Positions 12,253-12,310 of a stretch of 64,000 bases of DNA are shown here, one piece after another. Every line of letters begins with the position of its first letter. The first letter of the stretch is position 1. Both the position numbers and the translations under genes were made by a program. Source of the DNA: Escherichia phage vB_EcoM_DE7. The notes under the pieces are model-generated. The model was given only the letters and a program-made list of their open reading frames with translations. It was not told the origin of the DNA and made no database searches. The stretch lies in sequence record OL825705.1; one strand, written 5' to 3'.

Positions 12253-12310
12253 GGCGAAGGTTCGATTCCTTCACTCGGCAGATGTCGAGTTGGTCTAATG
12301 GTAGCACTTA
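12253..12310 (+). other. tRNA-like fragments in permuted order (T-arm plus 3' acceptor strand followed by 5' acceptor strand plus D-arm-like segment)
   Basis: GAAGG-TTCGATT-CCTTC-ACTCGGC then GTCGAGT-TGGTCTAATGGTAGCAC; the two acceptor strands are complementary; no intact cloverleaf. Confidence 0.35.

Follow-up and report, generated by a model that had tools for sequence, protein, structure and literature searches.

A conserved, circularly permuted tRNA-like RNA in the tRNA array of Felix O1-like phages is a candidate partner for a phage Ro60-like protein

The window analysed here, 64,000 nucleotides of Escherichia phage vB_EcoM_DE7 (OL825705.1), comes from a Felix O1-like phage (Felixounavirus) and carries two halves of a tRNA in permuted order. 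At 12253-12310 a T arm and a 3' acceptor strand lie upstream of a 5' acceptor strand and a D-like arm, and the acceptor strands pair at 7/7 positions with one G-U (G12278-T12285). The question raised by this locus is what such an arrangement represents. A first reading made from the letters alone (the sequence-only reading) described these parts accurately and offered a recombination scar, a disrupted tRNA or a permuted tRNA-like element as explanations. The third option was right, as the element is a conserved, unannotated and structured small RNA shaped like a circularly permuted tRNA. It is probably a non-coding variant of the YrlA-type Y RNAs, and we infer that it binds, and functions with, the Ro60-like protein of the phage. 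The first reading missed the stem that encloses the element, a hairpin at the variable-arm position (V hairpin), a conserved CAGCAA motif and the Ro60-like gene upstream.

Structure and conservation of the permuted element

ARAGORN reports 24 tRNA genes on the plus strand at 10960-16410. The element sits in a 432-nt spacer without an ARAGORN tRNA call (12051-12482), which runs from tRNA-Asp (11973-12050) to tRNA-Lys (12483-12558). Most of the matching records listed leave this spacer unannotated; in a few of them, minus-strand hypothetical proteins are placed there. An 801-bp query around the element matched 991 phage records, with the best matches being Salmonella and Escherichia Felixounavirus genomes at 90-97% identity. 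The parts of the element are listed in Table 1 with the other features discussed.

Table 1. Features of the element, its surroundings and its CCA-containing relatives (window positions, unless a locus is named)
Feature	Position	Strand	Details
Ro60-like protein gene, 471 amino acids	9379..10794	+	Pfam DUF2828 + DUF7788; ortholog of Bas63 gene 130
Two sigma-70-like promoters	10813..10933	+	TTGACA-17-TAATAT and TTGACA-18-TAAAGT, upstream of tRNA-Pro; sites at 10813 and 10904
Stem-only copy (P stem and CAGCAA, no tRNA-like insert)	11493..11570	+	Spacer between the tRNA at 11412-11483 and tRNA-Met; 31.3 bits, E 5.6e-5
Stem-only copy	11660..11724	+	tRNA-Met / tRNA-Asn spacer; 37.5 bits, E 1.8e-6
Stem-only copy	12111..12190	+	Directly upstream of the YrlA-like unit; 28.7 bits, E 2.4e-4
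Complete YrlA-like unit (terminal stem around permuted tRNA-like domain)	12199..12335	+	167.9 bits with model R1, 129.6 bits with model R2
Terminal (P) stem, 5' strand AGACCGU	12204..12210	+	Pairs with 12323-12329; RNAalifold
CAGCAA motif	12214..12219	+	Single-stranded, just 3' of the P-stem 5' strand; conserved; candidate protein-binding site
V hairpin UUUCU-CCGGUAA-AGAAA	12235..12251	+	5 bp, 7-nt loop; variable-arm position, anticodon-arm-like; 4 nt 5' of T arm
T arm GAAGG, loop UUCGAUU, CCUUC	12256..12272	+	Read from sequence; RNAalifold
Acceptor-like stem ACUCGGC, loop AGAU, GUCGAGU	12273..12290	+	Strands 12273-12279 and 12284-12290; 7-bp hairpin, 4-nt loop
D arm GTCT-AATGGTA-GCAC	12292..12308	+	Loop AAUGGUA (A14, G18, G19, A21); U8 at 12291
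P stem, 3' strand ACGGUCU	12323..12329	+	Followed by conserved GGUAAU; RNAalifold, pair counts
Third structured RNA module	12333..12478	+	23-bp closing stem (12333-12355 with 12456-12478), inner ACAGACC/GGUCUG hairpin; directly 5' of tRNA-Lys
Acceptor loop G-CCA-AACA, Mordin/Michonne	L024 (Mordin) 979-1107		Permuted copy
Acceptor loop A-CCA-ACUAU	L032 8952-9088		Permuted copy
Acceptor loop G-CCA-AUU	L113 6524-6640		Permuted copy

Unguided RNAalifold analysis of 14 sequences recovered five helices, namely the enclosing stem, V, T, the acceptor stem and D. The statement in the sequence-only reading that no anticodon arm is present is thus correct for 12253-12310 only, as the V hairpin lies just outside that interval. 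Its loop is not a decoding anticodon loop, since it is 6 or 7 nt long within the genus. The acceptor strands are separated by A12280 and GAT, and TG follows the 5' strand. Linkers of 24 and 14 nt join the terminal stem to the tRNA-like core. In single-sequence folds the P stem is lengthened by UUAC (12196-12199) pairing with GUAA (12332-12335), and an inner helix of CUUAA (12222-12226) with UUAAG (12308-12312) also appears; the latter is missing from the RNAalifold prediction and is not conserved in SUSP1 or Mordin. Folding of the single Felix O1 sequence gave the same picture. The stability z-scores of such folds are modest (-1.6 and -2.3), so the case rests on covariation and is comparative rather than thermodynamic.

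The element is not a canonical tRNA in its arm order, its 3' end or its recognition by tRNA finders. ARAGORN called neither a tRNA nor a transfer-messenger RNA (tmRNA) on it, and the Rfam tRNA model gave only a partial match, in which 12223-12273 corresponds to the anticodon and T arms, at 22 bits against a threshold of 29 bits. The neighbouring tRNAs that were read encode CCA and the permuted element in the window does not.

The spacer is matched by 251 phage records, nearly all of which keep its first 296 nt, and so the whole element, at 94-98% identity. These belong to the genera Felixounavirus, Suspvirus and Mooglevirus. According to the sequence-only reading, an ordinary tRNA at this place in related genomes would make the copy a deletion remnant; none was found among the 251 records, and the relatives (~250) carry the same permuted element. 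Its acceptor stem has changed in a compensatory manner across the genera, being ACUCGGC/GUCGAGU in Felixounavirus, ACACGUU/GGCGUGU in Suspvirus (SUSP1, EP1) and the Mooglevirus phage Sf13, and ACCCUUC-GCCAAACA-GAAGGGU in the Mooglevirus phages Mordin and Michonne. In the 14-sequence alignment three acceptor pairs are changed on both sides within the Ounavirinae alone.

The Ro60-fold gene and the wider RNA family

The gene at 9379-10794 lies just upstream of the tRNA array, on the same strand as the element and 1.4 kb upstream of it. It occupies the same position upstream of tRNA-Pro as bas63_0130 of Bas63 (Escherichia phage JohannRWettstein, Felixounavirus), of which it is the ortholog. An AlphaFold2 model based on 32 homologs (predicted local distance difference test, pLDDT, 86; predicted template modelling score, pTM, 0.87) was compared with the PDB using Foldseek. 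The ten best matches are all full-length Ro60, Rsr or TROVE chains, and include Xenopus Ro60 (2i91_A; E 3.7e-7, TMq 0.65), Deinococcus Rsr (2nvo) and the Ro60 of Thermus phage phiLo (9l5y/9kop). Further full-length matches are 1yvp and 9nfa, and the E-values over 2i91, 1yvp, 2nvo, 9l5y, 9kop and 9nfa range from 4e-7 to 6e-6. Matches to von Willebrand A domains rank after the Ro60 set and are far weaker. The protein is therefore modelled as a Ro60 ring, and on this model the phage encodes a Ro60-fold protein. This relation was revealed by fold comparison only; sequence searches, including NCBIfam, gave nothing useful. A search for DUF2828 returned >3,000 database clusters.

Whether the RNA accompanies such genes elsewhere was addressed with covariance models. 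Model R1, built from Felix-like copies only, detected a full-length homolog after tRNA-Asp in locus L032 (62 bits, E 1e-10), whose DUF2828 protein is 56% identical. In distant phages, full-length relatives were found at E 1e-10 to 1e-5. Of the IMG/VR loci fetched by DUF2828 homology, 73 were searched; their proteins are 39-48% identical, bar one closer relative (85%). Approximately 15 of them contain full-length R1 matches, all on the gene strand and most abutting the gene, with tandem copies in L042 (two), L047 (three) and L113 (two). An alignment of 26 sequences from these matches (A5) was fitted to the model, so its pairing counts are somewhat inflated, but 95% of its cells are paired compared with 37-46% when the 3' partners are slid. 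In A5 both partners have changed at 25/29 pairs, and the covariation score of 0.661 compares with 0.06-0.10 in the slid controls; 0/500 shuffles reach the observed values. Covariation is seen at 7/7 acceptor pairs and 4/5 T-arm pairs; in the P stem 6/7 pairs are changed on both sides and 100% of cells are paired.

Model R2, built from the 26-sequence alignment, gave 56 matches at E<1e-3 in 34/76 DUF2828-fetched loci. Every one of the 56 lies on the strand of the gene, the opposite strand giving none; this statistic is inflated and partly confounded, since tRNA arrays and the DUF2828 gene share an orientation. Many of these matches adjoin the gene, some occur in tandem, and they include loci outside the training set (L101, L059, L100, L106 and L085). 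When the whole window was searched, R2 found the element and the three stem-only copies, and nothing outside the tRNA array.

The same sequence signatures recur across the family. In 26/26 aligned members, stem-only copies included, the 5' strand of the terminal stem is followed at position 15-16 by C[A/C]GCA, which in most cases reads UNCAGCAA, and distant members keep a CUG(G/A)UAA tail after the 3' strand. In 20/22 members the T loop reads UUCGANU and in two UUCAANU, and the D loop has A14, G18G19 and A21. The Levitt pair 15:48 is G:C or A:U in 15/17 members outside Felixounavirus, Suspvirus and Mooglevirus. In many copies the acceptor stem is capped by a tetraloop such as GAAA or GUAA (GNRA/other).

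The terminal stem and its motif also occur on their own. The three stem-only copies are ~65-80 nt long, have the frame ACAGAAGACC...UNCAGCAA...GGUCUGG in common with the main element, and covary between themselves (ACCAA/UUGGU vs ACCGU/ACGGU). In other phages the stem and motif without the tRNA-like insert directly follow the DUF2828 stop codon.

With this conserved and covarying architecture, and with its recurrent same-strand linkage to Ro60-fold (DUF2828) genes, the element is the best candidate so far for the RNA partner of the phage Ro60-like protein, and a better one than the annotated tRNAs.

Unpermuted relatives of the RNA are present in locus L073, where two tandem tRNA-like RNAs (6895-7015 and 7025-7137) behind a strong TTGACT-17-ATTATA promoter lie ~0.5 kb downstream of the DUF2828 gene. 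Their order is 5' acceptor, D arm, a hairpin with UAUUCAGCA replacing the anticodon loop, T arm, 3' acceptor and N-CCA. As tRNAs they reach 56.9 and 40.9 bits, the inserts being 55 and 52 nt long. N-CCA is retained in three permuted lineages as well, where it immediately follows the 3' acceptor strand and lies within an acceptor loop of greater length (Table 1). This suggests processing into two-piece RNAs with a CCA end. Such copies would be opened by RNase P and trimmed, as in Mycobacterium smegmatis YrlA, and would probably exist in two-piece form. The window copy probably stays closed, since it has a tight AGAU loop and no CCA, and the same is expected of other tight-loop copies. The simplest reading of the series is that the permuted gene arose from a tandem pair such as that of L073. 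One tRNA-like RNA is thus seen in both circular permutations and in what appear to be intermediates, a natural series bearing on the origin of permuted RNA genes.

The same gene order of the halves, in which the 5' acceptor strand comes after the T arm and its adjoining 3' acceptor strand, is found in two-piece tmRNA of alpha-proteobacteria and cyanobacteria and in the permuted tRNA genes of Cyanidioschyzon. Relatives of the element with N-CCA would mature like two-piece tmRNA. The element differs in lacking a bulge-helix-bulge splicing motif, and nothing points to a circular intermediate; a circular RNA product, which the first reading had proposed to look for, need not be invoked.

Comparison with Y RNAs and competing explanations

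YrlA RNAs are a tRNA-mimicking subfamily of the bacterial and phage Y RNAs, partner Ro60, and have been described as circularly permuted tRNAs (PMC4201824, Chen et al. 2014). In their layout V, T, a loop-closed acceptor stem and D follow one another and the two ends of the RNA lie in the terminal stem (PMC4201824; PDB 6CU1, bioRxiv 10.1101/312249), and their genes are found no more than 4 kb from that of a Ro60 ortholog, in the same orientation (PMC4201824). YrlA RNAs are also characterised by binding to Ro60 in vivo and by pseudouridine 55 and dihydrouridine, the products of TruB and DusA. Compared with YrlA by published description, the element has the same helix order within a terminal stem and the same elbow nucleotides, namely a T loop of the form UUCRANY with G53-C61, A14, G18G19 and A21, and a U8-purine9 connector after the acceptor stem (UG in the window, UA in many relatives). 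The distance and strand relative to a Ro60-fold gene also agree, although the protein is Ro60-like by fold only. The 7-bp acceptor stem is shared with M. smegmatis YrlA, which is cut by RNase P (PMC4201824). The modularity of Y RNAs, with a Ro60-binding module and an optional effector module, is mirrored by the stem-only and full copies.

The element differs from YrlA in having the conserved CAGCAA in place of GNCGAAN0-1G, long linkers, a candidate partner of the DUF2828+DUF7788 type rather than Pfam TROVE, and a location within a tRNA array with three stem-only paralogs alongside. A comparable phage system is that of Thermus phage phiLo, in which Ro60 binds two phage-encoded Yrl RNAs and host PNPase (PMC12135203). 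There too a phage Ro60-fold protein has more than one Y-like RNA encoded nearby, and phiLo Ro60 (9l5y_A/9kop) is among the best matches to the open reading frame (ORF) at 9379-10794. Yrl1 and Yrl2 are, however, described as stem-bulge-stem RNAs with CGAA and no reported tRNA-like domain, and are encoded upstream of the gene and not in a tRNA array (PMC12135203).

In Bas63, gene 130 has been called Ro60-like and reported to counter the ppl defence (PMC11482910; 2024 preprint), and its deletion leads to small plaques on ppl-carrying hosts (PMC11482910). Its authors guessed that some annotated tRNAs are Y RNAs and identified none (PMC11482910). That study named no RNA partner, whereas the candidate proposed here lies in the tRNA-Asp/tRNA-Lys spacer. 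It provides a concrete RNA partner candidate for the Ro60-like protein of Felix O1-like phages (Bas63 gp130), which is implicated against an anti-phage system. What emerges is probably a new form of YrlA, paired with a Ro60-like protein family that is divergent and occurs widely in phages. Y RNA/Ro60 biology would thereby extend to the very large phage family DUF2828, which sequence comparison does not place in TROVE. A search of the literature on tRNA-like elements in Felixounavirus, and another on DUF2828, found nothing relevant.

As to how the RNA might be made and act, the promoters at 10813 and 10904 are the probable start of a polycistronic transcript that carries the element, because these promoter-like sites precede tRNA-Pro and no terminator-like site was found on the plus strand from them to the next promoter at 12733. 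The element would probably be transcribed with the flanking tRNAs and released on tRNA processing. By analogy with the Deinococcus Ro60/Y RNA/PNPase complex (PMC4201824; 10.1101/312249) and with Ro60-Yrl-PNPase of phiLo, the stem and CAGCAA module may bind the phage Ro60-like ring protein, while the tRNA-like elbow may recruit or tether a factor that binds tRNA, for instance a host exoribonuclease or an enzyme directed at tRNA. The resulting ribonucleoprotein would redirect or block RNA decay or surveillance during infection. More broadly, and only as a tentative proposal held with somewhat less than even confidence, DUF2828 proteins and stem/CAGCAA RNAs may form a large, unrecognised class of phage-specific Ro60/Y-RNA-like particles in tRNA arrays, with the RNA module alone, permuted and fused, or unpermuted and CCA-ended, acting on tRNA or RNA surveillance against host defences such as ppl.

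Several observations count against the assignment to a YrlA-type partner of the Ro60-like protein. The presumed Ro60 contact of YrlA, GNCGAAN0-1G, was not found in the element; its sole literal match (12253-12260) falls at the variable loop/T stem junction, is absent from Felix O1 and is not conserved. The Levitt pair 15:48 is non-canonical in the window (A15/C48) and in Felix O1 (A15/A48), as is the third D-stem pair, where C at 12295 forms a C-C mismatch with 12305 in this genome only, G being present in 13/13 aligned relatives. A search of the window against Rfam 15 at E<=10 matched no family other than tRNA to the element, with a library that may lack a YrlA model. On the protein side, phmmer and a 32-sequence profile found no Ro60 among PDB sequences, Pfam gives DUF2828 and DUF7788 only and not TROVE, and the relation to Ro60 is at fold level only, with 12-15% identity. 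The element is dispensable at least in ESCO49 (L027), since a deletion from tRNA-Asp through window position 12307 has removed it there and kept the downstream module. To these may be added the inflated pairing counts and strand statistic given above.

Among the competing explanations, the one that survives best, although unlikely, is that the element is a cis-acting processing element of the polycistronic tRNA precursor, providing a cleavage site for RNase P or another enzyme and having no role as a free RNA and no link to Ro60. Its position inside a tRNA array with no plus-strand terminator up to 12733, the stem-only copies in three other spacers, and the 7-bp acceptor stem with A at the discriminator position are consistent with this, M. 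smegmatis YrlA with a stem of equal length being an RNase P substrate (PMC4201824). In many distant phages, however, the RNA adjoins the DUF2828 gene and does not sit in a tRNA spacer, and it is tandem in L042, L047 and L113. The GNRA/other tetraloops on many acceptor stems make poor RNase P substrates, and the conservation of CAGCAA in all 26 members is left unexplained.

Rather less probable again is that the permuted gene yields an RNA which, once opened at the acceptor end and supplied with CCA, is aminoacylated and acts on the ribosome as a two-piece tRNA or tmRNA-like molecule. The N-CCA in the loops of Mordin/Michonne, L032 and L113 and the unpermuted N-CCA versions of L073, with their tRNA scores, point in this direction. 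The window copy has a 4-nt loop and no CCA, unlike the neighbouring tRNAs read. It also has no ARAGORN call and no G3:U70 (the 3:70 pair is C-G), and the V loop varies in length within the genus. A two-piece tmRNA in particular was rejected on the ARAGORN and G3:U70 results and because a candidate tag-like frame is not conserved between the two downstream sequence variants.

The scar reading, in which the 3' remnant of one tRNA lies beside the 5' remnant of another without function, is very improbable. The array is a rearrangement hot spot, with HNH genes at differing places in relatives and deletions ending at repeated stem sequences, and the permutation itself most plausibly came from a tandem duplication such as the L073 pair; but the scar reading, like that of a disrupted tRNA, is contradicted by ~250 genomes that keep the element at 94-98% identity, by acceptor pairs that covary 7/7 across the family and are compensated across genera, and by homologs in phages whose DUF2828 proteins are only 40-56% identical. 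Equally implausible are minus-strand small proteins, for which ORFs exist at 12171-12323 (50 amino acids, TTG start) and 12197-12307 (36 amino acids, GTG start) and hypothetical proteins are annotated in Bas63 (bas63_0137, bas63_0138) and several other records, as close relatives differ by a 1-nt V-loop indel, 2-/4-nt acceptor-loop changes and 3-/9-nt linker gaps, of which the 1-, 2- and 4-nt changes would shift the frames, and substitutions track RNA pairing and not codon positions.

A permuted group I intron, or intron-exon permutation, had been considered as ACAGACC and AAGAUAAU loosely resemble R and S elements. It was rejected, since Rfam Intron_gpI gave no match at E<=10 and ACAGACC/GGUCUG is a simple local hairpin.

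Neighbouring modules and other observations

The Bas63 coding sequences bas63_0137 and bas63_0138 are minus-strand hypotheticals that lie over the structured RNA (L114 2949-3223; MZ501086.1 82748-83022), and are probably annotation artefacts. The annotation of this region, blank in most records and given as minus-strand hypothetical proteins in some, is corrected accordingly.

In the third structured module (12333-12478), RNAalifold gives 30 pairs, 11 of them with compensatory changes. Across the genus its sequence falls into two strongly diverged variants, with 59 records fitting the variant of the window and ~190 not fitting it. Its 23-bp stem could be an RNase III substrate. Between tRNA-Asp and the last stem-only copy there are two further hairpins on the plus strand (12057-12110), GAGAGGGCU...AGCCCCUC and CCUUAAAGA...UCUUUAAAGG, the second of which shows a compensatory change in L031 (CCAUUAAAG...CUUUAAUGG).

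In PMBT20 (L028) a deletion has removed tRNA-Met through window position 12191. Its junction falls at the repeated AAUUUACAGAAGACC, which suggests recombination between stem repeats.

One tRNA of the array, at 11412-11483 on the plus strand, was not reported by ARAGORN and scores 55.4 bits with the Rfam tRNA model. Its synteny with the tRNA-Glu of Bas63, and a hand reading of its anticodon loop as CCUUCAA, make it a probable tRNA-Glu(UUC) in which position 33 is an unusual C. Between tRNA-Pro and this tRNA, which are 7 nt apart in Bas63, the window has an inserted ORF (11045-11410, plus strand) with a weak Pfam match to HNH endonucleases (22.9 bits; cut-off 21.4). HNH genes occur elsewhere in the arrays of relatives, before tRNA-Ile in Felix O1 and near tRNA-Tyr and tRNA-Asp in CRP22, and for this reason an HNH insertion was rejected as the cause of the split in the element.

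Rfam searches of nine related loci at the gathering score found tRNAs and one group I intron, and nothing else. The intron (L076 10696-10922; 71.5 bits) is ~4 kb downstream of the DUF2828 gene on an unrelated phage contig. Upstream of the tRNA array, a DUF5681 gene (8926-9297, plus strand) lies directly 5' of the DUF2828 gene. The same pair is present in the three diverged relatives L031-L033, where the DUF2828 proteins are 53-63% identical, so that the DUF5681-DUF2828 arrangement is conserved.

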